Source of the DNA: a virus
Virus genome (UHGV): UHGV-0189314
Direction: 5' to 3' (one strand)
Length of the DNA: 27,150 bases
Below are positions 7 through 26,666 of the stretch, one piece after another. Within the stretch, counting starts at the first letter, position 1. The number at the start of each line of letters is the position of its first letter. A model generated the notes under the pieces. That model had not been told where the DNA came from, searched no databases, and saw only the letters and a list, made by a program, of their open reading frames with translations. The translations under genes were made by a program, and so were the position numbers.

Positions 7-81
<75 letters not shown>

Positions 82-430
82 GAGAAACAAGCCTTACTGT
101 ATTGTGGCACTGGCGTATTTTTTATTACGTGGGGGCAGGTTGTTTTTAAATGACGTTTTGCTTTCTGGCTATGATGTTAGGTCGGGTGTAGCCTCAGTGC
201 TGATTTTTTACAATACCGGGATGGTGCAATATCGGTGGAGATTTTATATTTCCTGGCAGGGCCGATGATGCATCATCCCGGTGTTGTAAATAACACTAAA
301 GAGGTGTTCCTCAGTGCGAGGGTGGTTTCATGGGGAATCATAATATCTGTTGTAGGGATAGATATTTCAGGATGCACCCGACACTTCGATTTTTATTACA
401 ATAAAAATGGTTTATCTCATGCGTTGACTA

Positions 431-2365: not shown

Positions 2366-2548
2366 ATGACACGAAAACACTGGACACACAGAATGCCGCG
2401 AACGGCGGCGAAATGGGCACTGGTAGCGATACTGGTGCCTTTTTTATTGGTGGGATGTGTCAGCCTGGATAAAGCGCGCCAGCTTTTCGATACAGCTTCA
2501 CAGGTCTGCAAAATTGTCGACAGTGTCCAGCAGTGTATGCAGAACTGA
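2366..2548 (+). CDS. Small putative lipoprotein (lipobox LLVG-C); alternative start at 2393
   Basis: Signal peptide: basic n-region, hydrophobic WALVAILVPFLLVG, then Cys. The 30-aa mature part CVSLDKARQLFDTASQVCKIVDSVQQCMQN has 3 Cys and no prolines, so it is not a typical Rz1-type o-spanin. Confidence 0.4.
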   Translation: MTRKHWTHRMPRTAAKWALVAILVPFLLVGCVSLDKARQLFDTASQVCKIVDSVQQCMQN

Positions 2549-2878
2549 TAGACTGTGAGAGCAGAATATTTTGCTGAAAAATAAAAGACGCGTCGGCATC
2601 CGGAAAGCGTAGAGTTCTGCTACGTGTGCCAATTTTATCTTATTCATTCTAAATCTTGCCAAATCAAATGGAGCTTTGCTCAACTGCCCGGGTGGGAAGG
2701 GGCATTAAAACACGGGAAAATTATGTGGAAATCTACAGGAGTCAAGTTAATCACCGTATTGATTGACGGCAAACCACAATACTCACTTATTGAAATGAGC
2801 GGTCAGCATGCTTGTTTGGTTCGTGAGTAACAGGCATTACAGCAGTCCTCTCTCACTGAAGGGGGCTGCTGTAATGTG

Positions 2879-3085
2879 TTAGCTGTTTTTTATGAATCCG
2901 TTGACGACCCATCCGACAAATCTGAGAACACCATATATCAGCAAGGCACATGTCAGTGAAGTCAATATATCAAGCAGTGAGAAGCCTTGCGTATCTGTTG
3001 GTGAAAATAAAAGACCAAAGATGAACACCAGTGTAGCCAGCAGAATGCCCAGTCTATGGAACCCGTTCGAAATAGTGTTTTGCAT
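2879..3085 (-). CDS. Small two-TM membrane protein (68 aa) between lysis genes and cos; possible moron
   Basis: Minus-strand ORF with two hydrophobic helices (LGILLATLVFIFGLLF and LTSLTCALLIYGVLRFVGWVV). Occupies the position and orientation of bor in lambda, but has no lipobox. Confidence 0.35.
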   Translation of the reverse strand: MQNTISNGFHRLGILLATLVFIFGLLFSPTDTQGFSLLDILTSLTCALLIYGVLRFVGWVVNGFIKNS

Positions 3086-3255
3086 TTTTGTTTTCCGTAT
3101 CAGGTTGTAATGGTTTAGTTATTTTAGCATCTGGATAATGAGGTTCTAATCGTCTGGATATACCGGAAGCGATGGGGGGCGTTTGTTGAGTCTGATATTT
3201 ATTAAAATGATAACTTTTTCTCATTTTTACGGGTCCTTTCCAGAATCCGAAACAC

Positions 3256-3269
3256 CGGGGGTCGGTGGA
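3256..3269 (+). other. cosN-like cohesive-end site (approximate)
   Basis: GGGGGTCGGTGGA-CGCGCAAAAACG-CGCTATTTATGAGATTTTTT parallels lambda cosN and flank GGGCGGCGACCT-CGCGGGTTTT-CGCTATTTATGAAAATTTT (recalled). The CGCTATTTATGA block is identical, and the site lies ~220 bp upstream of the Nu1 start, as in lambda. Confidence 0.5.
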
Positions 3270-3309
3270 CGCGCAAAAACGCGCTATTTATGAGATTTTT
3301 TGAGGGGGT

Positions 3310-3455
3310 GGTTGTTGTTTAATTGTTTGTTATATCTCATTGATAAGTAAGAATAAACAGAAATAAATACAACAACCTGATGATGCTTTTTGATGTGATC
3401 GATGTATGAAATATAAATAAAATCAAATGGTTTCGTAAAAATACAAGGTTGTTGT
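3310..3455 (+). promoter_or_regulatory. cosB-like region with three copies of GGTTGTTGT (R-like terminase small-subunit binding repeats)
   Basis: GGTTGTTGT at 3310-3318 (+), its complement ACAACAACC at 3369-3377, and GGTTGTTGT at 3447-3455 (+); AT-rich spacers. Mirrors the lambda R3/R2/R1 layout between cosN and Nu1. Confidence 0.45.
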
Positions 3456-3487
3456 ATCGTTTTTTATCGATGGCTTATGGAGAGGAG

Positions 3488-3994
3488 ATGGCCTGTTTAT
3501 TGAATAAAAGCGATATGGCCTCCTCCATCGGTATATCCGTTCAGGCATTTGATAAATGGGGCGTTCCTCCTGTTGAGCGTCGGGGAAGGGAAGTTTTTTA
3601 TGATGTTAAAACCGTGCTGGAAATCGATCGCGAGCGACGACAGCACAATCAGAGAGCACCTGATGACGGGAGTGATCTGGAGGAAAGATTACTCCGGGCC
3701 AGAACTGAACTGACGGAAGAACAGGCCGTAGCTCAAAAACTTAAAAATCAGGTAACCGAAGGTAAGCTCATCGATTCAGAGTTCTGTGTTTTCGCCCTCA
3801 GCAAACTGGCGATGGCATTGTCCAGTACGCTTGATTCCATTCCTTTATCCATGCAGCGACAGTTCCCGGATTTAACCCCGCGTCATATTGATTATCTGAA
3901 AACCCTTATCGCAAAAGGAGCGAATCAGTGTGCGCGGGCAGGGGATAAATTGCCGGAGTTACTCGATGAATATATCCAGACAACAACTGAATAA
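3488..3994 (+). CDS. nu1: Terminase small subunit (lambda Nu1-like)
   Basis: RBS GGAGAGGAG then ATG at 3488. C-terminal FCVFALSKLAMALSSTLDSIPLSMQRQFPDLTPRHIDYLK...LPELLDEYIQ aligns with lambda Nu1 ...FCTFVLSRIAGEIASILDGLPLSVQRRFPELENRHVDFLK...IPGLLSEYIE (recalled). 3' end overlaps the A start, as in lambda. Confidence 0.85.
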   Translation: MACLLNKSDMASSIGISVQAFDKWGVPPVERRGREVFYDVKTVLEIDRERRQHNQRAPDDGSDLEERLLRARTELTEEQAVAQKLKNQVTEGKLIDSEFCVFALSKLAMALSSTLDSIPLSMQRQFPDLTPRHIDYLKTLIAKGANQCARAGDKLPELLDEYIQTTTE

Positions 3995-5882
3995 TATGAT
4001 GCTCGCCGTCACAACCGCATTACAGCCACTGATAAGGGCACTGCCGGTGACGCCGGTTGAGTGGGCTGATCAAAATTATTATCTGCCCAAAGAGTCGTCA
4101 TACGGTGAGGGGGAATGGAAAACCCTGCCGTTCCAGGTCGCCATCATGAACAGCATGGGTAATGACCGGATCCGTACTGTTAATCTGATTAAATCAGCGC
4201 GCGTGGGTTATACCAAAATGCTGTTGGGCGTGATCGGGTATTTTATTGAGCATAAATCCCGTAGCAGTCTGCTTTTTCAGCCGACAGATTCTGCAGCTGA
4301 AGATTTTATGAAAGCGCATGTGGAAGCTACATTGCGGGATGTTCCCTGCCTTAAAGCGTTGTCTCCATGGCTGGGCAAAAAACATCGTGACAACACGCTC
4401 ACTCTGAAGCGTTTTTCCTCCGGTGTGGGGTTCTGGTGCCTGGGCGGTGCCGCAGCTAAAAACTACCGTGAAAAATCTGTGGATGTGGTCTGCTATGACG
4501 AACTCTCCTCGTTTGAACCGGATGTGGAAAAAGAAGGCTCGCCGACGCTGCTTGGCGATAAACGTATCGAAGGCTCGGTATGGCCTAAATCCATACGCGG
4601 CTCAACGCCAAAAATTAAAGGCTCCTGCCAGATTGAGAAAGCCGCGAATGAATCTGCGCATTTCATGCGGTTTTATGTCCCTTGCCCTCATTGCGGGAAG
4701 GCCCAGTATCTGAAGTTTGGCGATGATGCGACGCCGTTTGGCCTGAAATGGGATAAGGGTAAACCGGAAACGGTGTATTACCTGTGTGAACATAATGGCT
4801 GTGTGATCCGGCAGTCGGAACTTGACCAGAGCGACGGACGCTGGATTTGTGACAATACCGGGATGTGGACGCGTGATGGCCTTACATTTTACAGCGCCGG
4901 TGATGAGGAGATACCGCCACCGCGCTCAGTCACGTACCACGTGTGGACAGCGTACAGTCCGTTCACCACCTGGGTGCAGATTATCTACGACTGGCTGGAT
5001 GCGCTGAAGGACCCGAACGGCGTCAAGACGTTTATTAATACCACGCTCGGGGAGCCCTATGAAGAGGCTGTGGCAGAAAAACTGAGCTTTGAGTTGTTGC
5101 TGGAAAAAGTCTGCCACTATGGTGCGCAGGTTCCCCTGCGGGTGGTTTACCTTACCGCCGGGATCGACTCCCAGAAAGATCGCTATGAAATTTATGTCTG
5201 GGGCTGGGCTCCCGGCGAAGAAGCCTTTCTGATTGATAAGCAAATTATCATGGGGCGACCGGAAGACGAGGACACCCTGAAACGTGTTGATACGGTGATC
5301 CGGAAAAAATACCGCCATGCTGACGGTACTGAAATTTCCATTTCCCGCGTCTGCTGGGATACCGGTGGTATCGACCAGGACATTGTGTATCAGCGTTCCA
5401 GAAAACACGGCACTTTTTTTGTGCTTCCCATAAAAGGGGCATCGGTGTACGGCAAGCCGGTGATCACCATGCCCAAAAAGCGCAACCAGCGTGGCGTGTT
5501 TCTGTGTGAGGTGGGTTCCGACACCGTCAAGGAAATGCTGTATGCCCGTTTTGCCCTGCCGGTGGTTCCTGCCAGTGAAGCCGCTCCGTATACCTTCCGT
5601 TTTCCGGATAACCCGGACATTTTTTCGGAAGAAGAAGCACGTCAAATCGTGGCGGAAGAACTGGTGGAAAAGGTGGTTAATGGCAGGGTGAAACTGCTGT
5701 GGGATAAAAAAGGGCGACGCAACGAAGCCCTCGACTGCCTGGTATATGCCTATGCTGCCCTGCGTATTTCAGTACAACGATGGCAACTGGACCTTGAGGC
5801 ACTGGCCAGGGCACGAAGAGACGAGCAGGATGAGGATGATATGAGTCTGGAAGAAATTGCGGCTGCACTGAGTGGAGGATAA
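3966..5882 (+). CDS. A: Terminase large subunit (lambda gpA-like)
   Basis: Near-colinear match to lambda gpA throughout (MNISRQQ..., EWADQNYYLPKES, WCLGGAAAKNYREKSVDVVCYDEL, YVPCPHCG, VYGKP, RRNEALDC). Start at ATG 3966, not the ORF-track 3930. Confidence 0.95.
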   Translation: MNISRQQLNNMMLAVTTALQPLIRALPVTPVEWADQNYYLPKESSYGEGEWKTLPFQVAIMNSMGNDRIRTVNLIKSARVGYTKMLLGVIGYFIEHKSRSSLLFQPTDSAAEDFMKAHVEATLRDVPCLKALSPWLGKKHRDNTLTLKRFSSGVGFWCLGGAAAKNYREKSVDVVCYDELSSFEPDVEKEGSPTLLGDKRIEGSVWPKSIRGSTPKIKGSCQIEKAANESAHFMRFYVPCPHCGKAQYLKFGDDATPFGLKWDKGKPETVYYLCEHNGCVIRQSELDQSDGRWICDNTGMWTRDGLTFYSAGDEEIPPPRSVTYHVWTAYSPFTTWVQIIYDWLDALKDPNGVKTFINTTLGEPYEEAVAEKLSFELLLEKVCHYGAQVPLRVVYLTAGIDSQKDRYEIYVWGWAPGEEAFLIDKQIIMGRPEDEDTLKRVDTVIRKKYRHADGTEISISRVCWDTGGIDQDIVYQRSRKHGTFFVLPIKGASVYGKPVITMPKKRNQRGVFLCEVGSDTVKEMLYARFALPVVPASEAAPYTFRFPDNPDIFSEEEARQIVAEELVEKVVNGRVKLLWDKKGRRNEALDCLVYAYAALRISVQRWQLDLEALARARRDEQDEDDMSLEEIAAALSGG

Positions 5883-13467: not shown

Positions 13468-13824
13468 ATGATTGGTATTGATTCCGCCACCGGCAGATAT
13501 CTGCACGGTAACGAACATCTGCGTCAGTCCGTCACCGATATTCTGTCAACACCGGTCGGCAGCCGTGTTCTTCTCAGGGAATACGGCAGCAGGTTGTTCA
13601 GTCTGCTTGATAACCCGCAGGATGATTTCACACGGGTGAGGATTGTCCGTGAAACGGCAACTGCCCTGGAACGATGGGAACCCCGCCTGACCCTCCGTCG
13701 GGTGGAGGTGACGTGGACCGGAGAAGGAAGCGCCTGGCTGACGCTTGTCGGGGTGAACAACGAGACACAGGAAACGATTCGACTCGAGGAGATAAAAATT
13801 GGCAACGTCTCAGGCAATCATTGA
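13468..13824 (+). CDS. W: Baseplate wedge protein W (P2 gpW / T4 gp25-like)
   Basis: ILSTPVGSRVLLREYGSRLFSLLDNPQ...LERWEPRLTL matches P2 W (ILRTPVGSRVMRRDYGSLLASMIDQPQ...KWEPRVTL). Confidence 0.85.
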   Translation: MIGIDSATGRYLHGNEHLRQSVTDILSTPVGSRVLLREYGSRLFSLLDNPQDDFTRVRIVRETATALERWEPRLTLRRVEVTWTGEGSAWLTLVGVNNETQETIRLEEIKIGNVSGNH

Positions 13825-14713
13825 TCTGTCCGCGATACCGGTACCGGATGCGGTGGAAGTGCCGGACACCGCTGTGCTGGTTACTCAGATAGTGGCGAAG
13901 TATCAGGAGCTGGATACGTTGTTTTCGGCCCTGGTGGAATCCGATCCGGCGTATAAATGGGCAGAGGCACTGGCTTTTCGCGTGGCGCTGATGCGCCAGC
14001 AGGTCAATGATGCTGTCCGGGGTGTACTGCTTGCCAGCGCCCGGAGGAACGACCTGGATCAGATTGGTGCGAATTTTCAGGTGCAACGTCTGGTGATTAC
14101 CCCGGCAGACGACAGCACCATCCCGCCCACGCCTGCGGTGTATGAAGATGATGATGCTTTTCGCGAACGTATCCAGTTGTCATGGGCACGACTCAGCACC
14201 GCAGGCGCGAAAAACGCATATCACTATTTTGCACAGAGTGCCGATCCTGATGTGCTGGATGTGAAAGCCTATGGGCCGGAAACGCATTCACAGGAAGGGC
14301 GTGTTTTTCTTTATGTGTTATCGCGAACCGGAAACGGTACGGCATCACAACCCCTGCTGGATAAGGTGGCCGCGTCAGTTAATGATGATGAAATCCGACC
14401 CCTGACGGATTTTGTCAGCGTCCGTGCGGCAGACATTATTCCCTACGATGTGGTGGCAGATATTCATATTCCCTACGGGCTGGACGGTGAACTGGTGATG
14501 AAAAATGCCCGCCAGGCGCTGCAGACCTACACTGACAGTGTTCACCGGATTGGCTCTGTGGCGTCCTGCTCTGGCATGGACGGAGCCCTGCATCAGACCG
14601 GTGTGATTACGGTGGCACTGAAATCGCCGGCCAGCGATATTGTTCCGGCGATGGGGCAGGCTCCATGGTGTCGCTCAGTCACACTGAACAAGGTGGAGAC
14701 AACCGATGAATGA
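13799..14713 (+). CDS. J: Baseplate assembly protein J (P2 gpJ-like)
   Basis: IIDLSAIP, NDLDQIGANF, RLVITPADDSTIPPTPAVYEDDDAFRERIQ match P2 J (IIDLNQLP, NDLDVIGANY, RLTITPADDSTIPPTPAVMESD). Probable TTG start at 13799 after RBS GAGGAG; no in-frame ATG nearby. Confidence 0.9.
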   Translation: MATSQAIIDLSAIPVPDAVEVPDTAVLVTQIVAKYQELDTLFSALVESDPAYKWAEALAFRVALMRQQVNDAVRGVLLASARRNDLDQIGANFQVQRLVITPADDSTIPPTPAVYEDDDAFRERIQLSWARLSTAGAKNAYHYFAQSADPDVLDVKAYGPETHSQEGRVFLYVLSRTGNGTASQPLLDKVAASVNDDEIRPLTDFVSVRAADIIPYDVVADIHIPYGLDGELVMKNARQALQTYTDSVHRIGSVASCSGMDGALHQTGVITVALKSPASDIVPAMGQAPWCRSVTLNKVETTDE

Positions 14714-15296
14714 CGATATCAGGAGCATACTGCCGGTCAGTGCCAGCCGGGCAGAGCGGGTGGTGGACTGTGTCGCCGGAGATATGCTGTCAGATATAGC
14801 GGTCTGCCTGATCCGCTATGTGAAAAATCCCGATTTATGTCCTGCTGAATTGCTGCCATGGCTGGCCTGGGAAATGGCGGTGGACACCTGGAATGAACAC
14901 TGGACGGAGACGGAAAAAAAGTCTGCGATAAAACGTGCTGCTTACATCCACCGCCACAGAGGGACTAAAGCGGCGCTGATGGCATCGCTGGCTGACAGTC
15001 CCTTCCGGTCGCAGATTGTTGAGTGGTATGAGCAGACCCCACCCGGGGAGCCGTATACCTTTCGTTTGAACGTGGAGCAGAAGGATTTACCGGTGCTGAT
15101 GAATGATCATCAGGATCTGAAGCATGCGGTACTCCGTGCCAAAAATCTGCGTAGCTGGTTCAGTATTCACGTTTACGGGAACAGCACAGGGCGGGGATTT
15201 GGTTACGGTTATGTGATGGCGACAGAAAAAATCAGAAGTAACGGTGTGATAACAAAGACAGTGCCCACTGGCGGGCAGAGTGAGGCAGGAGTATGA
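14706..15296 (+). CDS. I: Baseplate / tail protein I (P2 gpI-like)
   Basis: NPDLCPAELLPWLAWEMAVDTWNEHW matches P2 I (NPDTCPANLLPWLAWAFSVDRWDEKW); start overlaps the J stop. Confidence 0.85.
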   Translation: MNDDIRSILPVSASRAERVVDCVAGDMLSDIAVCLIRYVKNPDLCPAELLPWLAWEMAVDTWNEHWTETEKKSAIKRAAYIHRHRGTKAALMASLADSPFRSQIVEWYEQTPPGEPYTFRLNVEQKDLPVLMNDHQDLKHAVLRAKNLRSWFSIHVYGNSTGRGFGYGYVMATEKIRSNGVITKTVPTGGQSEAGV

Positions 15297-16552
15297 ATGG
15301 ACTGATTCTGACAACGTCCGGCACTGCAGAAATTGAAGCAGCATATCAGAACGGGCAAACCGTGACCGTCCGGCATGTTCTGCTTGGTGACGGGGGCGGG
15401 CAGGCATTGCCATCCACGCCGGATGAAATGGCAGCAATGACATCATTGTACGGCGAATTTGGGCAGGAACCCTTTTCCGACGGTGCGGTGGAGGAGGGCT
15501 TCATCAGCGGGGATATTGTGATTGACTGTAAATCATACCCCGGTAAAACCCTTCGTGAACTGGGTATAATTAGCGACAGCGGTACGCTTATCGCGTACGG
15601 ACGTTATCCGGACACCTTTTTACCAGACCAGACGGACTCTGTTATCAAGGAAGTTATTCTGACGCTGGTTCTTGGGCTGACGCACGCACAAAACGTGGTG
15701 CTGGAAGTTGATCCGGACAGGGCCATTATTACTCAGGAAATCGGAGACAGACGCTATCTGCAACGAAAAAAGAATCTTTCGGATGTGGAAGACAAGGATG
15801 AGGCTGTTAAAAACCTCGGATTAAAATCCACGGTGGACAAGGCAAAAAATGCCGTTCAGCGTGATGGTGACACCATGACCGGGGATCTGAAAATCCGTGG
15901 TGTTAATGCGCTGAGGATTTTCAACGAAGCCTTTGGTCTGATTTTTCGTCGTTCGGAAGAGTGCCTGCACCTTATCCCTACCAGTGAAGGTCAGGGCGAG
16001 AATGGCGATATTGGTCCACTTCGCCCGTTCACTATTAATCTGCGGACGGGTGAAATATCCATGTCGCATAAAGTGTCTATTGGCGGTGGTTCGCAGGTCA
16101 ATGGTGCGCTGGGTATCGGCGTTCAGAATGCCTTGGGCGGTAACTCAATTGCTTTCGGGGATAACGATACTGGCCTGAAACAGAATGGTGATGGCCTGCT
16201 GGATGTTTATGCCAATAGCGTGCATGTGTTGCGTTTTCAGAGTGGCAGTATCCAGAGTAATAAAGCTGTAAACGTTACAGGACGGGTAACACCGTCAGAC
16301 TACGGAAACTTTGATGCCCGTTACCAGACCAAAACAGGCGGCGTGCAGGATGTGCGTTATGGTTCCGAAATGTATTACACCCCGGGAGGTAACCAGATAT
16401 CCTGGACATTTCGCTCACCTTCAGGCCACGGGTTATCCGGTATTAATGTGCAGGAAACCGGAAGTAATTCGGCGGATAACATCGGCGGTGTGTATTACCG
16501 ACCGCTTCAGAAACTGATTAACGGTACCTGGTATAACGTGGCGAGTGTTTAA
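15293..16552 (+). CDS. H: Tail fibre protein (P2 gpH-like)
   Basis: C-terminal ALGGNSIAFGDNDTGLKQNGDGLLDVYANS ... GNFDARY ... YRPLQKLINGTWYNVASV matches P2 H (ALGGSSIVLGDNDTGFKQNGDGILDVYANS ... FDSRY ... FRPIQKYINGTWYNVAQV). Confidence 0.9.
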   Translation: MNGLILTTSGTAEIEAAYQNGQTVTVRHVLLGDGGGQALPSTPDEMAAMTSLYGEFGQEPFSDGAVEEGFISGDIVIDCKSYPGKTLRELGIISDSGTLIAYGRYPDTFLPDQTDSVIKEVILTLVLGLTHAQNVVLEVDPDRAIITQEIGDRRYLQRKKNLSDVEDKDEAVKNLGLKSTVDKAKNAVQRDGDTMTGDLKIRGVNALRIFNEAFGLIFRRSEECLHLIPTSEGQGENGDIGPLRPFTINLRTGEISMSHKVSIGGGSQVNGALGIGVQNALGGNSIAFGDNDTGLKQNGDGLLDVYANSVHVLRFQSGSIQSNKAVNVTGRVTPSDYGNFDARYQTKTGGVQDVRYGSEMYYTPGGNQISWTFRSPSGHGLSGINVQETGSNSADNIGGVYYRPLQKLINGTWYNVASV

Positions 16553-16554
16553 CA

Positions 16555-17097
16555 ATGTTGCATTTAAAAAATATTACTGCGGGTAACCCGAAAACCGCAG
16601 AACAATATCAGCTGACAAAACAGTATGATGTCACCTGGCTTTTTTCGGAAGACGGCAAAAACTGGTATGAAGAACAGGAGAATTTTGCCAGTGACACCAT
16701 AAAAATGGTTTATACCGGAGACGGAAGCGTGGTGTGGGTCGGTAAGGATGTGACAGGCATTGAACCCCGTAACGCCAGTGTTATTGAAGTTCCTGATATT
16801 ATCGCCAATCGCCGCATTACCGCACCGGGTTACTGGTTTTACCGCAATGATGAATTTGTTTTCGACTACAAACTTAAAGCGGAAGACGAGCGTGATGCCC
16901 TGTTAAAACAGGTCAGCATCATCACCAGTGAGTGGGAAAAAGACCTGCTGCTGGGATTAATCAGCGACGAAGACAGGGAGAAGCTGAAAGCGTACCGCAT
17001 TTATGCGAAATCGCTGCAGGCGATGGGTTTCAGCGCTATTGCGGATAAGACTGCTTACGACAAAATTGCCTGGCCTGAGTCACCACAAAATATCTGA
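16555..17097 (+). CDS. G: Tail fibre assembly chaperone (P2 gpG / Tfa-like)
   Basis: 180-aa ORF immediately after the fibre gene, in the canonical tfa position and size; call rests on position and general resemblance. Confidence 0.75.
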   Translation: MLHLKNITAGNPKTAEQYQLTKQYDVTWLFSEDGKNWYEEQENFASDTIKMVYTGDGSVVWVGKDVTGIEPRNASVIEVPDIIANRRITAPGYWFYRNDEFVFDYKLKAEDERDALLKQVSIITSEWEKDLLLGLISDEDREKLKAYRIYAKSLQAMGFSAIADKTAYDKIAWPESPQNI

Positions 17098-17112
17098 AAA
17101 AAGTGAATCAAC

Positions 17113-17137
17113 AAACCGCCTTGAGGGCGGTTTTTTT
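17113..17137 (+). terminator. Intrinsic terminator (AAACCGCC-TTGAG-GGCGGTTT + T7) between tfa and sheath
   Basis: 6-8-bp stem and T-tract 17131-17137, ending 14 nt before the sheath ATG; matches the P2 operon boundary between G and FI. Confidence 0.6.
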
Positions 17138-17150
17138 ATGGGAGAGATGT

Positions 17151-18626
17151 ATGTCCGGACTACATGGTGTTGAAACCATTGAACTGACAACAGGTACGGT
17201 CGCCGTGCAGACCATCTCCACGGCAGTGGTTGGTCTGGTGGGGACTGCTCCGGATGCCTCTGGTGGTGTGTGTGCTTCCGGTACAGCCGGTTCGTGGCTG
17301 CTGGGAACGGCGCTGGATTTTACGGCGAAACAGGAGGGCCGGGCCGGCAATAAGATTTCGGTGGTTGCTGTCGCGGCCACAGAACAAAGCGCGCAGACCA
17401 CGGCCTCGCTGGAAGGTACAACCCTGACGATAACGCTGGGGACGGATGAGCACAGCCAGGTTAACGCCACGGTGGAGCGTGTGACTGAAGTGGTGAATGC
17501 ACTGGGTGATTCACCTGTGACGGCGGCAGTCAGTACCCTGAATGCAGGGGGCGCTGAAAATAATGTGGTGTCGCCGTTCAGCCTGACGTTATCCGGCGGG
17601 GAGGATGAGGCGTTCCCGGTCAATACACCGGTGGTGGTGGCAGGGGCCATTACTCAGGCCGGGAAACTGGGCTCAGCCGGGACATTATATCCGGCCCTGC
17701 GTGATATTTTTGACCAGACCGGTGCGCTGGTGATTGTGGTGCGTGCGGAAAGCAAAACAAAGGCGAAAGAGGCCGAACAGCGTGCGGCGGTGATTCAGGC
17801 CATGGAGGCGCTGACAGAAAGTAAGGGCGTCACGGGCTATCAACCGCGCATCCTCATTGCCACGGGGTACAGTGAGGATGATGGCGTGGCAAAGGCGCTG
17901 GAAACGTATGCCGCGAAGCTGCGGGCCGTGGCCTATATCGACTCTCCCTCAATGGCAACGCCGCAGGATGTGGTTCAAAGGCGCGCATCCTTTGGCGGGC
18001 GCGTGGAGCTGCTGCGCCCGCGCGTGTCAGTAACGGATGACAGCGGGCAGACGGTATTTCGTCCATATTCGGCTCGTGCTGCCGGGCTGCGTGCCCGTAT
18101 TGATTATGAAAAAGGGTGGTGGTGGTCCAAATCAAACCAGGACGTGATGAATATCACCGGTCTGGAGCAGGTGGACACGTTTATTCTCGGGGAGCAGAAC
18201 TGCACAGCAAACCTGCTGAACATGGAAAATATCTCCACCATTATTCGCCATGACGGTTTTAAACACTGGGGTAACCGTCTGTGCACATCCCACAGTCAGT
18301 GGCGCTTTGAACCGGTACGCCGTACTGCAGATGTGATTGAGGACAGTATCCAGGAGGCCATGCTGCCTTATGTCGATCGCCCGCTGGATCGTGATGTGGC
18401 GGACGACATTCTTGGCAGTATTAATGCCTATATGCGTCAGCTTAAAAATCTGGGCGCGATCCACGGTGGCAGTGCCTGGCTGAATGATGAACTGAACACA
18501 GCAGAAACCCTGGCCGCCGGGCAGTTGTATATCGATTATGACTTTGGGCCGAAGTCACCACTGGAGCGCCTGACACTGCGGGCGATGATTAACAATAAAC
18601 TGGCGCTGGAGGAGCTGACGGTATGA
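17151..18626 (+). CDS. FI: Contractile tail sheath protein (P2 gpFI-like) with an extra ~120-aa insertion
   Basis: N-terminus MSGLHGVETIEL..VQTISTAVVGLVGTAPDA and C-terminal LGLRARIDYEKGWWWSKSN...IIRHDGFKHWGNR...TAETLAAGQLYIDYDFGPKSPLERLTLRAMI match P2 FI. RBS GGAGAG then ATG 17151; the ORF-track start at 17103 would include the terminator. Confidence 0.95.
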   Translation: MSGLHGVETIELTTGTVAVQTISTAVVGLVGTAPDASGGVCASGTAGSWLLGTALDFTAKQEGRAGNKISVVAVAATEQSAQTTASLEGTTLTITLGTDEHSQVNATVERVTEVVNALGDSPVTAAVSTLNAGGAENNVVSPFSLTLSGGEDEAFPVNTPVVVAGAITQAGKLGSAGTLYPALRDIFDQTGALVIVVRAESKTKAKEAEQRAAVIQAMEALTESKGVTGYQPRILIATGYSEDDGVAKALETYAAKLRAVAYIDSPSMATPQDVVQRRASFGGRVELLRPRVSVTDDSGQTVFRPYSARAAGLRARIDYEKGWWWSKSNQDVMNITGLEQVDTFILGEQNCTANLLNMENISTIIRHDGFKHWGNRLCTSHSQWRFEPVRRTADVIEDSIQEAMLPYVDRPLDRDVADDILGSINAYMRQLKNLGAIHGGSAWLNDELNTAETLAAGQLYIDYDFGPKSPLERLTLRAMINNKLALEELTV

Positions 18627-19141
18627 TGACGGGTGAAAAAAAACTATTGCGCGCATGGGCGTTATTTCTTCCTGGTGGGATCCGTCTTCATGGCGCGCAC
18701 GAATATACGCCGCCAGCCATTAATATCACGACAGTGGATATCAAAACCGGTGCAATGGATGCACCGGTGGCAGTGGATGATGGTATGGAGGCGCTGACCT
18801 GCTCGTTTAAGATTTATGGCTACGATGTTGCCATGCTGACACTGCTTGGATTACAGGCGGGGCTTTATTCGCCGGAGATTGTTGTCCGCCAGGCTTACAG
18901 GGTGGGGAATGCGACCAGCGGACAGGTGGAAACCCTGCAGGGGATGATCACCAGTATCACGCCGGATGCGCGTCCGGCAACGTCACAGGCAGAGGCTTCG
19001 GTGACGGTGGAAATGTCACTGAGTTATTACCGTCAGGCTGTCGACGGTGTGGAAACCATCTGCATTATTCCGGAGGAATTTGTGCGCCGTATTAACGGCG
19101 TTAATGTTCTGTCGGATCTAAAAAAAATCATCCGGGTTTAA
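18623..19141 (+). CDS. FII: Tail tube protein (P2 gpFII-like)
   Basis: 172 aa (same size as P2 FII), directly after the sheath gene with overlapping ATGA; moderate resemblance to P2 FII. Confidence 0.8.
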   Translation: MMTGEKKLLRAWALFLPGGIRLHGAHEYTPPAINITTVDIKTGAMDAPVAVDDGMEALTCSFKIYGYDVAMLTLLGLQAGLYSPEIVVRQAYRVGNATSGQVETLQGMITSITPDARPATSQAEASVTVEMSLSYYRQAVDGVETICIIPEEFVRRINGVNVLSDLKKIIRV

Positions 19142-19160
19142 TCCGGGGATCCTGTCATTC

Positions 19161-19188
19161 AGGCGGCTCAGGCCGCCTTTTCTTTTTT
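19161..19188 (+). terminator. Intrinsic terminator (AGGCGGC-UCAG-GCCGCCU + TTTCTTTTTT) after the tube gene
   Basis: 7-bp stem, 4-nt loop, U-tract to 19188; next RBS AAAGGAG at 19189-19195. Confidence 0.55.
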
Positions 19189-19201
19189 AAAGGAGATGCT
19201 T

Positions 19202-19504
19202 ATGTCGGAAAAAAACAGTGTTCCTGCCAGCTGCGTGGAAATTGTGTTATCCGTGCCGTATGTCACCGCATCAGGGCAGACGATCACGCACATCACCATG
19301 CGTGCACCCACCGTCCGCGATCGTCTGTTGCATCGACGGAGTACCAAACCGGAAGCAGAGGCTGACCTGGATATGATTGCCGGTCTTTGCGGGATGGATG
19401 CGGCGGACATGATGAACATGGAAGCGTGTGATTACCTGGCCCTGGAGCGGCAGTTTAATGTTTTTTTGCTGCCGCCGGTCCGGCGGAAGAAGAAAGTATC
19501 CTGA
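19202..19504 (+). CDS. E: Tail assembly chaperone E (P2 gpE-like), zero-frame product
   Basis: Small acidic protein between tube and tape-measure genes; contains the slippery run T-TTT-TTG at 19462-19468. ATG 19202 preferred (RBS spacing) over 19196. Confidence 0.75.
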   Translation: MSEKNSVPASCVEIVLSVPYVTASGQTITHITMRAPTVRDRLLHRRSTKPEAEADLDMIAGLCGMDAADMMNMEACDYLALERQFNVFLLPPVRRKKKVS

Positions 19505-19641
19505 TGGCGATACGGCGTGCCGGTGCCTGGTTCGGGTGGTCTCCCGGAGATGTGATGGCGCTGCCGTATACGGATTTTGTGTCAATGATGCTGGCGGAGT
19601 CGGAAGAGAGGAAGCGACGTTATGGCAACGGTTGGCGATAA
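19202..19641 (+). CDS. E+E' fusion made by programmed -1 ribosomal frameshift (slip at 19462-19468)
   Basis: After a -1 slip at T_TTT_TTG the -1 frame stays open from 19468 to TAA 19639-19641 (…AIRRAGAWFGWSPGDVMALPYTDFVSMMLAESEERKRRYGNGWR), overlapping the tape-measure start. Same arrangement as P2 E/E' and lambda G/GT. Confidence 0.6.
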
Positions 19642-21274
19642 CCTTAAAGCGAATATCAGGATCGGCGGCACGATAGATCCGTCGTGGAAAAAATCGGTAG
19701 ATGGACTGAAGCACGGATTATCAGGGGCAACGCAGGAAGTGGCCCGCCTGACACGCCAGCAGGACGTACTGAAACGAAAAATTCAGGCTGGCGTACTGGC
19801 TGGACAGGATATTACTGAACTGCGAAAGCAGTATGAAAAGCTGGGCAAAAAAATTCATGATGCTACCGGAGAGCAGGACAAATTTAACCGTAAGCTGGCT
19901 CGTGCTGAACGTCTGGAACGCTGGAAAGGGCGGGCCGGGACCGTTCTTAAAACCGGGCTGGGGCTTTCTGTTGGTTCGGGGTTGACGCTGGCAGCGGGCA
20001 CTACCGCTGTGCTTAACCGGAATACGGAAACGGCAGAGCGGGCAGGGATAGCCCGCAGTTACGGGGTGGATTATGAAACCTATGCGGCATGGGATTCACT
20101 TGCCCGACTGATGGGGCTGAACGGTGAAAACATCGGTGATCTGTTTGAGGAGTACCGGAACAAGGTTTTTGACGATGATAATGGTGCCACGGACAAAGGA
20201 GCCATTCAGGAGGTATTCGGTAAACTGGGGCTGAAAGCGGGCGTAATGGCCGGAAAAAGCAACCAGGAGCAGGTCGAATTTTTATTTGATCGCTTACTGC
20301 AGGTGGAGAATGAACAGGTGGCAGCCGGGATGGCAGATGCGCTGTTTGGTGGTGAGGCCAATAAAATTCTGACCTGGATGCGTCTGTCAGGAAAAACTTA
20401 CCGGGAGCTTATCAGTGAGCAGAAACGCTATAACCTGGTGACAAAGGCAGGGGCAGATGGCGCAGTTCAGGGGCATATGGCGCTGTCAAATCTCAGTAAT
20501 GTTCTGAGTTCGTCCATTGATGAAATCAGCGGGCAACTGGGTAAGGAGCTGGCACCACATATTCAACAGGTGACGGATGACCTTGCGGCCTGGTTTAAGT
20601 ATGGTGGACTGGAAAAAATCCGGGCATTTATCCGTGATGATGCCCTGCCGGCGCTGATCGACATGGCAGCATGGATGTGGAAATTCGGAAAGGTTCTGGC
20701 TGGAATCACACAAAAAGCCATTGAGTGGGGGTTAGCGGATGATCCACGAGAGGACCGGCGAGAGGTGCTGGAATATCTGGCAAAAATGGGGGCGCCGGAG
20801 CTGGCGAGAGCGGTGGCGCAGAAAAACGGTCAGGGAGAATGGTTTGATGAACTGCTCAGGCAAAATCCGGACCTGACGAAACAGGTTGTACAGGCTTATA
20901 AAGACACCCGCGGTTATCTCCCCTGGAATCATGACGATAAAAAGTTTGATGCATTTCTCGACCCTTTGCTGGGGCCGAAAGAAGAACCTGATTTTAAGGC
21001 GATAAAAGAGAAATCCCGCACCTACATTGATGGACTTCATGCAGCAGATTCGGGGCAGGGTAATTCGGATCCCCTCTCAGCTCTTCAGTATACACCCGGC
21101 AGTATCAGCCAGGTGGAAGTAAAACCCACGTATCAGATACGGGCGGAATTCAACATCACCCAGAAGCCAGGCGAGGATGCCGGACAACTGGCAGACAGGG
21201 TGACGAAAAATCTGGGTGATATTCATTTTGGTCAGCGTTCCCGTATGACTGATGGTTATGAATCCTGGGGGTGA
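19622..21274 (+). CDS. T: Tail tape-measure protein (P2 gpT position; 550 aa)
   Basis: Large, predicted alpha-helical protein directly after E/E' and before U; call is mainly positional. Confidence 0.7.
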   Translation: MATVGDNLKANIRIGGTIDPSWKKSVDGLKHGLSGATQEVARLTRQQDVLKRKIQAGVLAGQDITELRKQYEKLGKKIHDATGEQDKFNRKLARAERLERWKGRAGTVLKTGLGLSVGSGLTLAAGTTAVLNRNTETAERAGIARSYGVDYETYAAWDSLARLMGLNGENIGDLFEEYRNKVFDDDNGATDKGAIQEVFGKLGLKAGVMAGKSNQEQVEFLFDRLLQVENEQVAAGMADALFGGEANKILTWMRLSGKTYRELISEQKRYNLVTKAGADGAVQGHMALSNLSNVLSSSIDEISGQLGKELAPHIQQVTDDLAAWFKYGGLEKIRAFIRDDALPALIDMAAWMWKFGKVLAGITQKAIEWGLADDPREDRREVLEYLAKMGAPELARAVAQKNGQGEWFDELLRQNPDLTKQVVQAYKDTRGYLPWNHDDKKFDAFLDPLLGPKEEPDFKAIKEKSRTYIDGLHAADSGQGNSDPLSALQYTPGSISQVEVKPTYQIRAEFNITQKPGEDAGQLADRVTKNLGDIHFGQRSRMTDGYESWG

Positions 21275-21276
21275 AG

Positions 21277-21765
21277 ATGGTGGATTTACTGGGCTGGGGC
21301 GTAAACCGGCTTGAGCGCGAAGCATGGGACGCAGTGGGCTCATTAACGGAGGTGGCTTCCCGCGTCATGCTGTCGTTTGGTGAGTTTGAATTCAGTATCG
21401 ATACGGCAGCGTATAACGCCATGAAGCGCACCATGGAATGGCGGTGGGATGAACAGCAGCTTATCGGAAAAAACGACCTGCTGCAGTATACCGGCAAGGG
21501 AGCCAGAACAATAACCCTTGAAGGTATGGCGCATGCAGGATTTCGTGACGGTGTGGGAATGGATGCCCTTGATACACTGGTTCAGATGGTGGATGACAAT
21601 CCGGCTCCGTACCTTCTGGTCTCGAGCACAGGCGATGTGATGGGGTATTTTGTTGCAACCGCCTATTCAGATAACACCACGTCCTTTCTTCCCGGCGGTG
21701 CGCCGAAGAATAAAACGTTCACACTGGAGCTGAAATACTATGGTGAAAAACTGGCGGACCACTGA
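21277..21765 (+). CDS. U: Tail protein U (P2 gpU-like)
   Basis: SFLPGGAPKNKTFTLELKYY resembles the gpU family C-terminus. ATG 21277 after GGGGG; alternative GTG at 21271. Confidence 0.8.
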   Translation: MVDLLGWGVNRLEREAWDAVGSLTEVASRVMLSFGEFEFSIDTAAYNAMKRTMEWRWDEQQLIGKNDLLQYTGKGARTITLEGMAHAGFRDGVGMDALDTLVQMVDDNPAPYLLVSSTGDVMGYFVATAYSDNTTSFLPGGAPKNKTFTLELKYYGEKLADH

Positions 21766-21958
21766 CGGCGATATGCTGGATGATATCTGTCAGAGACACT
21801 ATGGCAGCGCCGGACTTAACCAGTCACTGGCGGCGGTACTGGAAGCCAATCCCGGACTGGCTGATATTGGTCCGGTATATCCGGCAGGTGTGGAAATCGT
21901 GTTGCCGGACTGGGTGTATGAACCGGAGGAAAAGGAGACGTTTCAGTTATGGGACTGA
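21740..21958 (+). CDS. X: Tail protein X (P2 gpX-like, LysM-like)
   Basis: DGDMLDDICQRHYG....LAAVLEANPGLADIGPVYPAGVEIVLPD matches P2 X (QGDTLDAICVRYYG...VLAANPGLAELGAVLPHGTAVELPD). Confidence 0.85.
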   Translation: MVKNWRTTDGDMLDDICQRHYGSAGLNQSLAAVLEANPGLADIGPVYPAGVEIVLPDWVYEPEEKETFQLWD

Positions 21959-23037
21959 ATGAATATCTGCCTGATTTCAGCCTGACAGCAGAGGGGGAGG
22001 ATATCACGAAGGCCATAAAGCGGGGGCTGGCTGAAGTGCGTTATACCGATAATGGTGCTGCCACAAAGCGCTCCGATGAACTGATGATAACCCTGTTCAG
22101 TGAGAAGATGGCGCTGCCACCAAAAGGCGCGGTGTTAACGCTGGGACTGGGATTCAACGGAAACCTGGTAAATAAAGGCAGCTTTACCGTCTGCCAGGTG
22201 GCAAGTGGTGGGCCTCCCCGTTGGATCACCATTTATGCCACAGCCGCCCCCATGAATGCGTCCAGGCATGGTGCAGATGTGACTGCACTGAAAACCCGCG
22301 TGTTCAGCGATATTACGCTGGGTGAACTGGTGAAAACGATCGCCACTGAAAATAATCTGGTGGCGCAGGTCTCACCGGCGCTGGCGGAAATCCGTATTCC
22401 GTGGGTGATGCAGTCATCTGAATCGGATGCGTCCCTGCTTTCCCGGCTTGCAGGGATGTACGGTGCCACCAGTAAACCGACGAACGGTTACTGGTTATTC
22501 CTGGAGTATGGCGCATCGCAGAGTACATGCGGCAGGGATGCCCCTGTAATGACCATCACGCCGGACATGGTGTCAGACTGGGATTACCGGGAGGGGGAGC
22601 GGCAGGGCGCATCCGGAGGTGGAAAAGGAACAACAAAAAAAGGGAAAGTGGGTGTCAGATATTTTGACCCTCGCGACGGGAGAACGCGCGAATTTAAAGT
22701 GGATGTGGAGTCCACAGACAAGCGACATCCATTCACTCAGCCGGATCAGGGCACAGCAAAACACTGCGCAGACTCTAAGGTTAAACGTGTGCAGAAAGCC
22801 GGACGCCAGATGACGATAACGTTGCCCTGCAGGCCCGCATTGTTGAAAGCGGGTGCAGAGATGCGTTTTATCACGCAGGGTTTTGGGGGACGCGAGGATC
22901 ATAACTGGCAGGCTGAGTCGGTGGAGTTTTCACTGGCACCGGGGCAGGGATTTACGCTGAATCTGTCGCTGACCACGGATATTTCTGCAAAGGGGAAAGC
23001 CAGTGGCAAGAAAAAAGGCGTCAATTATTTTGGTTAA
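21949..23037 (+). CDS. D: Tail protein D (P2 gpD-like, baseplate hub / late tail gene)
   Basis: Size and several blocks match P2 D (LPDFSLTAEGEDITKAI, PPKGAVLTLGLGF..LVNKGSFTV, TLGELV); terminal gene of the U-X-D trio. Confidence 0.85.
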   Translation: MGLNEYLPDFSLTAEGEDITKAIKRGLAEVRYTDNGAATKRSDELMITLFSEKMALPPKGAVLTLGLGFNGNLVNKGSFTVCQVASGGPPRWITIYATAAPMNASRHGADVTALKTRVFSDITLGELVKTIATENNLVAQVSPALAEIRIPWVMQSSESDASLLSRLAGMYGATSKPTNGYWLFLEYGASQSTCGRDAPVMTITPDMVSDWDYREGERQGASGGGKGTTKKGKVGVRYFDPRDGRTREFKVDVESTDKRHPFTQPDQGTAKHCADSKVKRVQKAGRQMTITLPCRPALLKAGAEMRFITQGFGGREDHNWQAESVEFSLAPGQGFTLNLSLTTDISAKGKASGKKKGVNYFG

Positions 23038-23061
23038 TGTTTTCTGAATCAGGAAATAAAA

Positions 23062-24279
23062 ATGTCTGTATTAATTTCGGGTGTGCTGACGGATGGTGCG
23101 GGACTCCCCATGTCCGGATACCATATTATTCTGAAAGCCCGACAGAATACATCCGCAGTGGTTATGAGAACGGTGGCAACAGTGGTGACAGGGCCGGCAG
23201 GAGAATATGCATTTGAGGCTCAAACCGGAATATATGATGTTTATCTTCGTTCGTGTATTGAAAGAGAATATTGTGTCGGTGATATTTGGGTTTACGACGA
23301 TTCTAGGCCCGGTACACTGAATGATTTTCTGACCGCTCTCGATGAGGGCGACTTGAAACCGGATGTGGTGAAACGCTTCGAAGAAATGTTGGCGCAGGCG
23401 CAGCAGAGCGCGGAAGCGGCAGCGGAAAGCGAACGACAGTCCGGGCAACACGCAGCTGATGCGCAGAAGATTAAGGATGATTGCCAGATGCTGGCGGATA
23501 ACGTACAGCAGAATGCAGAAGCCGTTGCCGAAGATAAACAACGCGTTGAACATCTGGCCTCAGAAGTTGAGTTGAACGCTGGGCAGGTGCAGCAGAGTAT
23601 TACAGATGCAGTAAAGCAGGCTCAACAGGTAGCAGATGACGCTGCATCCAGTGCCGAGGAATCAAAGAACAATGCGCAGGAAGCAAAACAGTACAGGGAT
23701 GAGGCACAACAGATTATTGATAGTCTGAATGCAACAAATGCCACCACAATGGATAAAGGGCTGGTGCAACTGTGTAGTGATACGGACAACGACACCGAGG
23801 AGCTGGCTGCTACGCCAAAGGCAGTCAAAGCCGTCATGGATGAGGTTAAGGGAAAAGCGCCGCTGGACAGCCCTGCGTTCACTGGCATGCCAACCACCCC
23901 CACCCCTTCGCAGGATGCGTCCGGTTGTGAAATTGTAAATGCTGAATTTGTTCGGGCATTGATTGCTGCAACGTCATCAGGTTCGTATTCAACCGATTCA
24001 GTGGTTCCGCTGGTAATTAATGGTGCACAACTCCAGTCCGCTCATCAGAGCAGTGGACCACTGGTGATAAACAAGGTGCAATTTCAGCACGTCCGTCAGA
24101 CCAGAACCAATGCCCCCCTGGTGGTCAACAAAGCACTGATCCAGTCCGCTCATCAGAGCAGTGGACCACTGGTGATTAACAAGGCGCAACTTCAGCACGG
24201 TCGTCAGGCCAGAACCAACGGCCCCCTGGTGGTTAACCGTATGGGGTTGAGTTTTGCATTCGTTACCCCTTTGCAATGA
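23062..24279 (+). CDS. Second tail fibre: lambda-Stf-like N-terminus, coiled-coil region, repeat-containing C-terminus
   Basis: N-terminus MSVLISGVLTDGAGLPMSGYHIILKARQNTSAVV...VYDDSRPGTLNDFL matches the lambda Stf / prophage tail-fibre N-terminal domain (MAVKISGVLKDGTGKPVQNCTIQLKA...VYEDSQPGTLNDFL). Middle GLVQLCSDTDNDTEELAATPKAVKAVMDEVKGKAPLDSPAFTGMPTTPT matches the conserved fibre motif also in P2 H. Confidence 0.8.
   Translation: MSVLISGVLTDGAGLPMSGYHIILKARQNTSAVVMRTVATVVTGPAGEYAFEAQTGIYDVYLRSCIEREYCVGDIWVYDDSRPGTLNDFLTALDEGDLKPDVVKRFEEMLAQAQQSAEAAAESERQSGQHAADAQKIKDDCQMLADNVQQNAEAVAEDKQRVEHLASEVELNAGQVQQSITDAVKQAQQVADDAASSAEESKNNAQEAKQYRDEAQQIIDSLNATNATTMDKGLVQLCSDTDNDTEELAATPKAVKAVMDEVKGKAPLDSPAFTGMPTTPTPSQDASGCEIVNAEFVRALIAATSSGSYSTDSVVPLVINGAQLQSAHQSSGPLVINKVQFQHVRQTRTNAPLVVNKALIQSAHQSSGPLVINKAQLQHGRQARTNGPLVVNRMGLSFAFVTPLQ
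24007..24240 (+). repeat. Near-identical tandem coding repeat (2 x 108 bp plus a partial third) at the C-terminus of the Stf-like fibre
   Basis: Copies at 24007-24114 and 24115-24222 differ at only a few positions; each encodes PLV[I/V]N-x-(A/V)Q-x-Q-SAHQSSG / PLVIN-K-x-Q-x-QH-x-RQ-x-RTN. Also generates the antisense artefact ORF 23998-24276. Confidence 0.75.
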
Positions 24280-25886: not shown

Positions 25887-26666
25887 TTATATAAGAGTGT
25901 TTTGCAGCCAGTTTTTTATCGTTATATTGACTTCCTTTGCGTGAGTAATATTTAGAGCATGATTAGCGTCGGGAATGACTTCAAGCTTAGAATGTGCAAT
26001 CATTTTGTGCATTTGAATTGCTTTCTCCAAAGATATCCCCGTATCTCTGGCACCATGAATAATCAGGGTGGGGGTTGTGATTATCTGGATTCTTTCTGAA
26101 ATGTCGTCGCGCTCCAGCATTGCATTCATGGCATTTCTGATGTTTTCAGGCTTATGGCCTAGCCATACTTGTCTCCATGTCTCTGCTTCAGAAATATTAT
26201 TTCCGAAAAAAACGGGTAATAATGAGGAAATTATATTTTCCTTTATGATTGGGTCTTGCCATCCATCACATAACTCCATGTAACTGGAAGCGATTTCTGG
26301 CGGATCCTGCTCTGCCTGAGTTGCCATAAGGATTAACCCTGATAAACGTTCCGAATGTGAAAGAGCAAATCGTAAAGATATATATCCGCCCATTGACATC
26401 CCCCCTAAAACAAACTTATCTAGTTGTAGTAAGTCTGCAACCATTAAAATATCATCGACGATATCATAGAGCGAGAATGCTTCTGTTTTTTCACTGTTTT
26501 TATCAAACCCCCGAACATTAATACAAACAACTCTGTGTTTTTCTTTTAGTTCGTCAAGCTGATATTTAAACATTTCATTATTCATGAAAAATCCATGAAC
26601 GAATATTACAGGGGGATTGTTTTTATTTGTTTCAGTGTATCCAGAATCAGTAAACGTAAAATTCAT
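25887..26666 (-). CDS. Alpha/beta-hydrolase-fold protein (esterase/lipase-type serine hydrolase), low-GC cargo gene
   Basis: HGFF oxyanion-hole motif, nucleophile elbow GGMSMGG (G-x-S-x-G), acidic residue in HGARDTG, and His in DANHALN in the canonical order Ser-Asp-His. RBS GGAGGG upstream of the minus-strand ATG. Strongly AT-rich codon usage unlike the phage structural genes. Confidence 0.8.
   Translation of the reverse strand: MNFTFTDSGYTETNKNNPPVIFVHGFFMNNEMFKYQLDELKEKHRVVCINVRGFDKNSEKTEAFSLYDIVDDILMVADLLQLDKFVLGGMSMGGYISLRFALSHSERLSGLILMATQAEQDPPEIASSYMELCDGWQDPIIKENIISSLLPVFFGNNISEAETWRQVWLGHKPENIRNAMNAMLERDDISERIQIITTPTLIIHGARDTGISLEKAIQMHKMIAHSKLEVIPDANHALNITHAKEVNITIKNWLQNTLI

Follow-up and report, generated by a model that had tools for sequence, protein, structure and literature searches.

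The 27,150-nucleotide sequence UHGV-0189314 (the window, by which we mean the whole stretch of viral DNA analysed) carries an AT-rich region just ahead of a pair of terminase genes. This raises three questions: is it the site at which the phage DNA would be cut for packaging, where would the ends of the virion DNA fall, and which packaging specificity does it represent? An earlier note on this DNA had proposed a lambda-like cos site at 3256–3460, predicting cohesive-end packaging. We consider it very probable that 3231–3457 is the cos site of a lambda-like Escherichia coli prophage, judging from the sequence layout, homology, spacing and conservation of the region and from the covariation of its R boxes with the small terminase subunit (TerS). 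The interval originally given covers everything from cosN to R1, and leaves out cosQ (3231–3237).

A 1-kb query (3000–4000) matched the chromosome of E. coli Sx181-0-1 at 100% identity, among prophage genes; matches to this query came from roughly 800 E. coli genomes. The cos region adjoins the 5’ side of genes for a Nu1-family TerS (3488–3994, plus strand; Pfam Phage_Nu1, E = 7.6e-22) and a gpA-family large terminase subunit, TerL (3966–5882, plus strand; GpA_ATPase, E = 1.1e-53; GpA_nuclease, E = 2.5e-67), the latter being the enzyme that would nick cosN. The TerL coordinates are those of PGAP, as is the TerS start, an ATG at 3488 in the annotation of the identical Sx181-0-1 chromosome, which places R1 33 bp upstream of the TerS start. 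A lambda-family portal gene is found directly 3’ of the terminase genes (Pfam, 6.1e-95).

Several features of the surrounding DNA deserve mention in their own right. Contractile-tail genes occupy 13799–24279, 3’ of the lambda/21-like head genes, and include those for baseplate J (13799–14713), the tail sheath (17103–18626) and a GPD-like hub (21949–23037); the window combines a myovirus-type tail with a lambda-type head and packaging module. An alpha/beta-hydrolase gene (25887–26666, minus strand) lies on the opposite strand just past the tail-fibre genes, and is either prophage cargo or the beginning of the host flank. At the other end, the start of the window (10–84 and the sequence upstream of it) falls, according to the identical E. 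coli record, within a cluster of tRNA genes carried by the phage (four: Ile, Arg, Thr, Gly), with the Q antiterminator on one side of it in that record and the lysis genes on the other. Phage-borne tRNA clusters are common in lambdoid prophages. The segment between the lysis cassette and cos (2550–3230) has no PGAP annotation in the identical record, and two small minus-strand ORFs within it (2879–3085 and 3054–3224) gave no Pfam match. Since the equivalent slot of the related prophage SerU-LTIIb is occupied by the LT-IIb enterotoxin genes, this segment looks like a cargo (moron) slot.

The leftmost element of the cos region is the cosQ heptamer GGGTCCT (3231–3237, plus strand), which is identical to lambda 48473–48479, sits in a conserved block GGGTCCTTTCC (3231–3241) and is unchanged in every relative aligned. 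The lambda termination nick needs cosQ. The distance from the start of cosQ to the predicted nick is 29 bp here and 30 bp in lambda.

To the right of cosQ, the lambda-like left-end string GGGGGTCGGTGGACGCGCAAAAACGCGCTATTTATGAGATTTTTT of the earlier note is indeed present at 3257–3301. Its register relative to the known ends is set by a short motif. In the records of lambda, N15 and Pseudomonas phage MD8, each of which opens with the left cohesive end, TATNTATGA occupies the sequence from bp 26 on; in the window TATTTATGA begins at 3285, which gives a gap-free register in which cos bp 1 corresponds to 3260. Read in this register, cosN spans 3258–3273 and is made up of the 12-bp cohesive-end sequence and 2 bp on either side. 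The top strand is predicted to be nicked at 3259|3260 and the bottom strand at 3271|3272, which by homology would leave the 12-nt 5’ cohesive end GGTCGGTGGACG (3260–3271, plus strand). Alignment to lambda cos, which had been suggested as a check, is gap-free across cosN, with an identical cosQ and a predicted cohesive end sharing 7 of 12 positions with lambda GGGCGGCGACCT. The match to N15 GGGCGGCGTCCG extends to 8 of 12 positions, and the predicted end terminates in ...CG|CGC, precisely like that of N15. The register also fits relatives from E. albertii and E. coli O111 in which a lambda cosN is combined with a window-type cosB: in the O111 RM9322 and E. albertii forms both cosQ and cosN are lambda-identical (...GGTTACG|GGGCGGCGACCT|CGCG...), and from TATTTATGAG towards the left their alignment with the window needs no gap.

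The similarity of this cosN to that of lambda is nevertheless moderate, with 5 of the 12 positions different and 8 of 16 bp symmetric as against 10 of 16 in lambda. A dyad, GTC-NNNN-GAC, has its centre at 3265|3266, midway along the predicted overhang, and the four central overhang bases are the most variable among relatives; positions 3 and 5–8 of the cohesive end vary while positions 1, 2, 4 and 9–12 are fixed. Given the 7/12 identity to lambda, a cosQ that is 1 bp closer and an R3 that is 1 bp off its N15 position, we regard the predicted nick positions as good to about ±1–2 nt.

The same DNA can be read in another way. The earlier note parsed the string as GGGGGTCGGTGGA, which corresponds to a cohesive end GGGGTCGGTGGA (3258–3269) or a 13-mer at 3257–3269 within a cos site that is otherwise the same. 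This parse follows from anchoring on the CGCG that directly succeeds the lambda overhang and begins at 3270 here; an inverted repeat, CACCG/CGGTG, centred at 3260, also speaks for it. The repeat, however, is not kept in relatives, and R3 would come to lie at bp 53–61, 2–3 bp off its place in N15 and MD8. A group of relatives with GGGCGGCAGACG, which bridge the gap between the window cosN and that of lambda, match lambda positions 1–7 in the gap-free register only. Because the earlier parse requires a 2-bp insertion before TATTTATGA and then yields just 4 of 12 identities to lambda, where the gap-free register yields seven, eight to N15 and the N15-like terminus, we rate it less likely than 3260–3271 and, taken by itself, as unlikely. 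The claim that the genome ends had been pinpointed holds only to about ±1–2 nt, and the end itself is predicted to fall 2–3 nt to the right of the position first proposed. No contig ended at cosN among 24 IMG/VR loci and 8 metagenome loci; the site was internal in all of them, so that they bear on the position of the ends neither way.

Continuing in the gap-free register with 3260 as bp 1, cosN is followed by an I2-like conserved block, CTATTTATGAGATTTTTT (3284–3301, plus strand; cos bp 25–42), which matches lambda bp 25–40. It is placed where the phage 21 record annotates I2, and is nearly invariant in the alignment of complex cosB sequences.

Beyond this block lies the element that gives cosB its character. 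The 9-mer GGTTGTTGT had been reported to occur three times, once inverted, ahead of the Nu1 start, and this is the case: copies are found at 3310–3318 (plus), 3369–3377 (minus) and 3447–3455 (plus). They are the only perfect copies in the 27,150 bp, all fall within 146 bp, and no other 9-mer in the window occurs three times inside 200 bp. We refer to them as candidate TerS boxes R3 (3307–3324, core at cos bp 51–59), R2 (3367–3378, inverted, core at cos bp 110–118) and R1 (3446–3457, core at cos bp 188–196). R2 and R1 have a perfect 12-mer, AGGTTGTTGTAT, in common, in inverted orientation, and R3 extends to GGTTGTTGTTTAAT (3310–3323), exactly N15 bp 50–63. The proposal that they are the counterparts of R3, R2 and R1 of lambda agrees with their order, with the spacing of R3 and R2, with the inversion of R2 and with the position of the candidate I1, all of which match lambda and 21. 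R3 and R1 are direct and R2 is inverted, with R3 near bp 50–65; lambda R3 is at bp 50–65 (PMC9026076), the annotated R boxes of phage 21 are at 50–65, 107–122 and 150–165 (M81255), and the MD8 box is at bp 51–59. R2 is invariant in the complex-cosB alignment and coincides in position with R2 of phage 21 (bp 107–122), while for R1 the distance from cosN exceeds that in lambda and 21 (bp 150–165) by some 38 bp.

An rR2 element was sought, at up to one mismatch, at +149 to +161 of the TerS gene, where the simple-cosB relatives have it, and gave no match. A one-mismatch copy of the box, AGTTGTTGT (3980–3988, minus strand), occurs where the 3’ end of the TerS gene overlaps TerL. E. coli and Shigella relatives have this copy too; it is off the rR2 position and is probably a coding coincidence.

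Might the three boxes instead be operators or other regulatory sites of the terminase operon, or simply chance repeats in AT-rich DNA? They do lie within the 5’ leader of the TerS gene, and the region is 30% GC, in which short repeats are commoner. Only 49 of 20,000 simulations at the local composition (0.25%) produced a 9-mer triple, as did 6 of 200 when the whole window was simulated with a first-order Markov model. A promoter and terminator scan of 2500–3600 found nothing above chance, with no promoter-like site on the plus strand and a single match on the minus strand (3439–3410) against 2.9 expected from shuffles, which leaves the regulatory reading of the boxes without support. The box is moreover the one that mutagenesis defined in N15 as the packaging site R3, its distance from cosN is fixed across Escherichia, Aeromonas, Pseudomonas and Halomonas phages, and it covaries with the TerS helix-turn-helix as described below. 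A regulatory or fortuitous origin therefore strikes us as very improbable, and in what follows the boxes are treated as putative TerS-binding sites.

Two near-matches to the IHF consensus accompany the boxes. The candidate I1, TATCAATGAGATA (3333–3345, minus strand; cos bp 74–86), differs at one position from WATCAANNNNTTR. Its strand and coordinates are those of the IHF-like core within the annotated I1 of phage 21 (bp 72–86) and those of lambda TAACTTAATGTTT (bp 74–86), and relatives in E. coli and E. albertii keep its core, TTGATA. Between R2 and R1, in the extra ~38 bp that separate these boxes, there is a further IHF-like motif, AATCAAATGGTTT (3421–3433, plus strand), again one mismatch from the consensus, whose A.CAA..GGTT core persists even in an Aeromonadaceae MAG. 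This second motif could bend the DNA and so return R1 toward the complex. The window as a whole is not enriched in such motifs, one-mismatch IHF near-matches numbering 26 observed against 21.8 expected.

The protein that would read the boxes is of a recognizable type. TerS differs from N15 gp1 at only three of residues 1–27, with SVQAFDKWGV identical, and the recognition helix is the same in the two proteins (MACLLNKSDMASSIGISVQAFDKWGVP in the window, MAVLLNKSDMASSLGISVQAFDKWGVQ in N15 gp1). Overall identity is 48% to N15 gp1 and 35% to lambda Nu1, in which the helix differs. R3 of N15 was mapped by block mutagenesis to bp 48–59, GAGGTTGTTGTT, and the m2 mutation, a scramble of GTTGTT, lowered the yield about 100-fold (PMC4669245). 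The N15 left end reads ...GAGGTTGTTGTTTAATC at bp 48–64.

A scan of IMG/VR with the cosN/I2 string of the window recovered 24 loci having the cosQ-cosN-I2 module in common and falling into five cosB types, in every one of which the box lies in direct orientation at the position of R3 and recurs, inverted, further downstream. On this common cosQ-cosN module each of the five R-box types has a TerS helix-turn-helix type to itself: GGTTGTTGT goes with a TerS N-terminal region containing ...SVQAFDKW, GATCCGTTCTTCTTCT with ...CDVRTITGWQ, CATGTCGGTACTTCTC (the phage 21 type) with ...VDPRTIERWQ, CACTTCCGGTTTT with ...GITERWLRDLQ, and CATGTCCGGTTTC with ...SLTDRQLRRLQ. This covariation on a constant background is the strongest in silico support for the boxes being the predicted binding sites. 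Together with the published N15 genetics, it leads us to predict a packaging specificity of the N15 type. The C-terminal part of the window TerS resembles that of the types with the same cosN/TerL module, which suggests that the DNA-binding domain and cosB have been exchanged together.

Protein binding and the exact nick positions are inferred, as is any present-day packaging by the prophage, and the mechanism proposed here is modelled on work with lambda and N15 (PMC4669245, PMC9026076). TerS dimers would use an N15-type winged helix-turn-helix to bind the GGTTGTTGT boxes, and an IHF-induced bend at I1 would make R3 (direct) and R2 (inverted) face a single TerS dimer, with R1 serving as an accessory site. 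The R3-bound complex would then position TerL on cosN for nicks staggered by 12 bp, generating the 5’ cohesive end. The role of cosQ would come later, in directing the terminal nick once the next cos reaches the portal.

Many E. coli lambdoid prophages are cryptic, and the site might therefore be a relic: a true cos by descent in a defective prophage that is neither cut nor packaged at present. In UTAK-3, a 98.7%-identical relative, TerL is frameshifted. In the window, on the other hand, the ORFs for TerS, TerL, portal, protease, capsid and a full set of tail genes are intact with strong Pfam matches, and all of the cos subsites are perfectly retained, being conserved among relatives whose spacers have diverged. 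We accordingly think a defunct site improbable.

The window cosB was found in 224 of 5,426 complete E. coli genomes, and cosB sequences of the window type, at about 85% identity, occur in E. coli O111 RM9322, E. albertii and others. Species-representative genomes were also scanned for the combination of an N15-type DNA-binding domain and a GGTTGTTGT box at the R3 position. It was encountered in many genera, among them Escherichia, Trabulsiella, Pluralibacter, Erwinia, Aeromonas, Oceanimonas, Pseudomonas and Halomonas. Most of the species-representative matches have the simple N15 layout. A minority, in E. albertii, an Escherichia sp. and the Aeromonadaceae MAG, have the complex one, with the same 59-bp and 78-bp spacings as the window. 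When the complex cosB sequences are aligned, cosQ, the I2 block, the three R boxes and the IHF-like cores stand out as conserved islands between divergent spacers. Short contigs carrying the box together with an N15-type TerS were also met with in MAGs labelled Paraclostridium and Candidatus Anammoxibacter, most likely because sequence from gammaproteobacterial phages was binned there by mistake.

The comparison of relatives further reveals that cosN and cosB assort independently. The window cosN module, a divergent one which is common to many E. coli prophages, is associated with at least five types of cosB and TerS DNA-binding domain, and the window cosB is joined elsewhere to a lambda-identical cosN, with the junction near TATTTATGA(G/A). 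In the predicted cohesive end, positions 3 and 5–8 take at least ten forms among prophages with an otherwise identical ~80-bp cosQ-cosN-I2 module (for example GGTG, ATGG, TGGG, GGCA and GTAG at positions 5–8). It is conceivable, if quite a long shot, that this variety reflects diversifying selection and that the window represents one allele of a two-part code made up of sticky end and TerS specificity; were this so, sticky-end diversity might block annealing or co-maturation of co-resident related phages or satellites. Neutral drift at positions which the nuclease does not read is the alternative.

A full-text search of the literature for the cos sequence strings returned unrelated primer matches only. 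As to its class, the window cos is an ordinary member of one already described, the complex cosB of N15/Monarch specificity, and its divergent cosN module is a modest twist only; with a description of the class in print since 2015, it does not alter how lambda-type packaging is understood. What the analysis does give this prophage family is a testable pair of predicted virion ends (5’-GGTCGGTGGACG, 3260–3271) and a predicted packaging specificity, both of use for genome orientation, for PhageTerm-style checks, and in forecasting which helper phages or satellites could cross-package. It also offers a clean natural case of cosN and the cosB/TerS DNA-binding domain as separately exchangeable modules.

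How, then, does this cos site compare with those of known phages? In architecture it is that of lambda (NC_001416). The order cosQ-cosN-I2-R3-I1-R2-R1-Nu1 is the same, the coordinates of R3, the candidate I1 and R2 coincide, and in both R2 is inverted and R2 and R1 resemble each other more than they do R3. The R sequence of lambda, CGTTTCCnTTCTTCT, is however unrelated to the R box of the window. The earlier description of a lambda-like cos is apt for the full layout; the specificity, as indicated by the R sequence and the TerS helix, is that of N15 and Monarch. Phage 21 (M81255) presents a similar picture. Its R4/cosQ, I2, R3, I1, R2, R1 layout coincides in coordinates with that of the window, and its genes from TerL to capsid are about 75% identical to those of the window at the DNA level, yet it possesses CGTGTCGGTACTTCTC-type R boxes, a different TerS helix and the cosN of lambda.

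With N15 (NC_001901) the resemblances are of the opposite kind. The GGTTGTTGTTTAAT R3 core and flank, the TerS DNA-binding domain and TATNTATGA at bp 26 are as in the window, but N15 has a simple cosB, in which R3 is accompanied only by an inverted rR2 far away inside gene 1 (bp 249–260). It is without I1, R2 and R1, and only 30 bp separate R3 from the ATG, whereas the window has R2, R1 and a candidate I1, 229 bp from the end to the ATG, and no rR2. The common E. coli carriers of this cosB that were examined have it with lambda-identical cosQ and cosN; in the window it is on the divergent cosN module, which differs from the lambda-type carriers in the segment between the overhang and TATTTATGA.

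Both sets of characters come together in Monarch (Feiss et al. 2015, PMC4669245), a likeness that we draw from the published description of the Monarch group. Monarch likewise has an N15-type R3 and an identical TerS recognition helix, together with a complex tripartite cosB (R3, IHF site, inverted R2, R1) and no rR2 in the TerS gene. The description gives the group three R boxes and places Monarch with phages having lambda-like cohesive ends (PMC4669245). Judged by its sequence, the closest system to the cos site of the window is that of N15/Monarch specificity and not that of lambda specificity.
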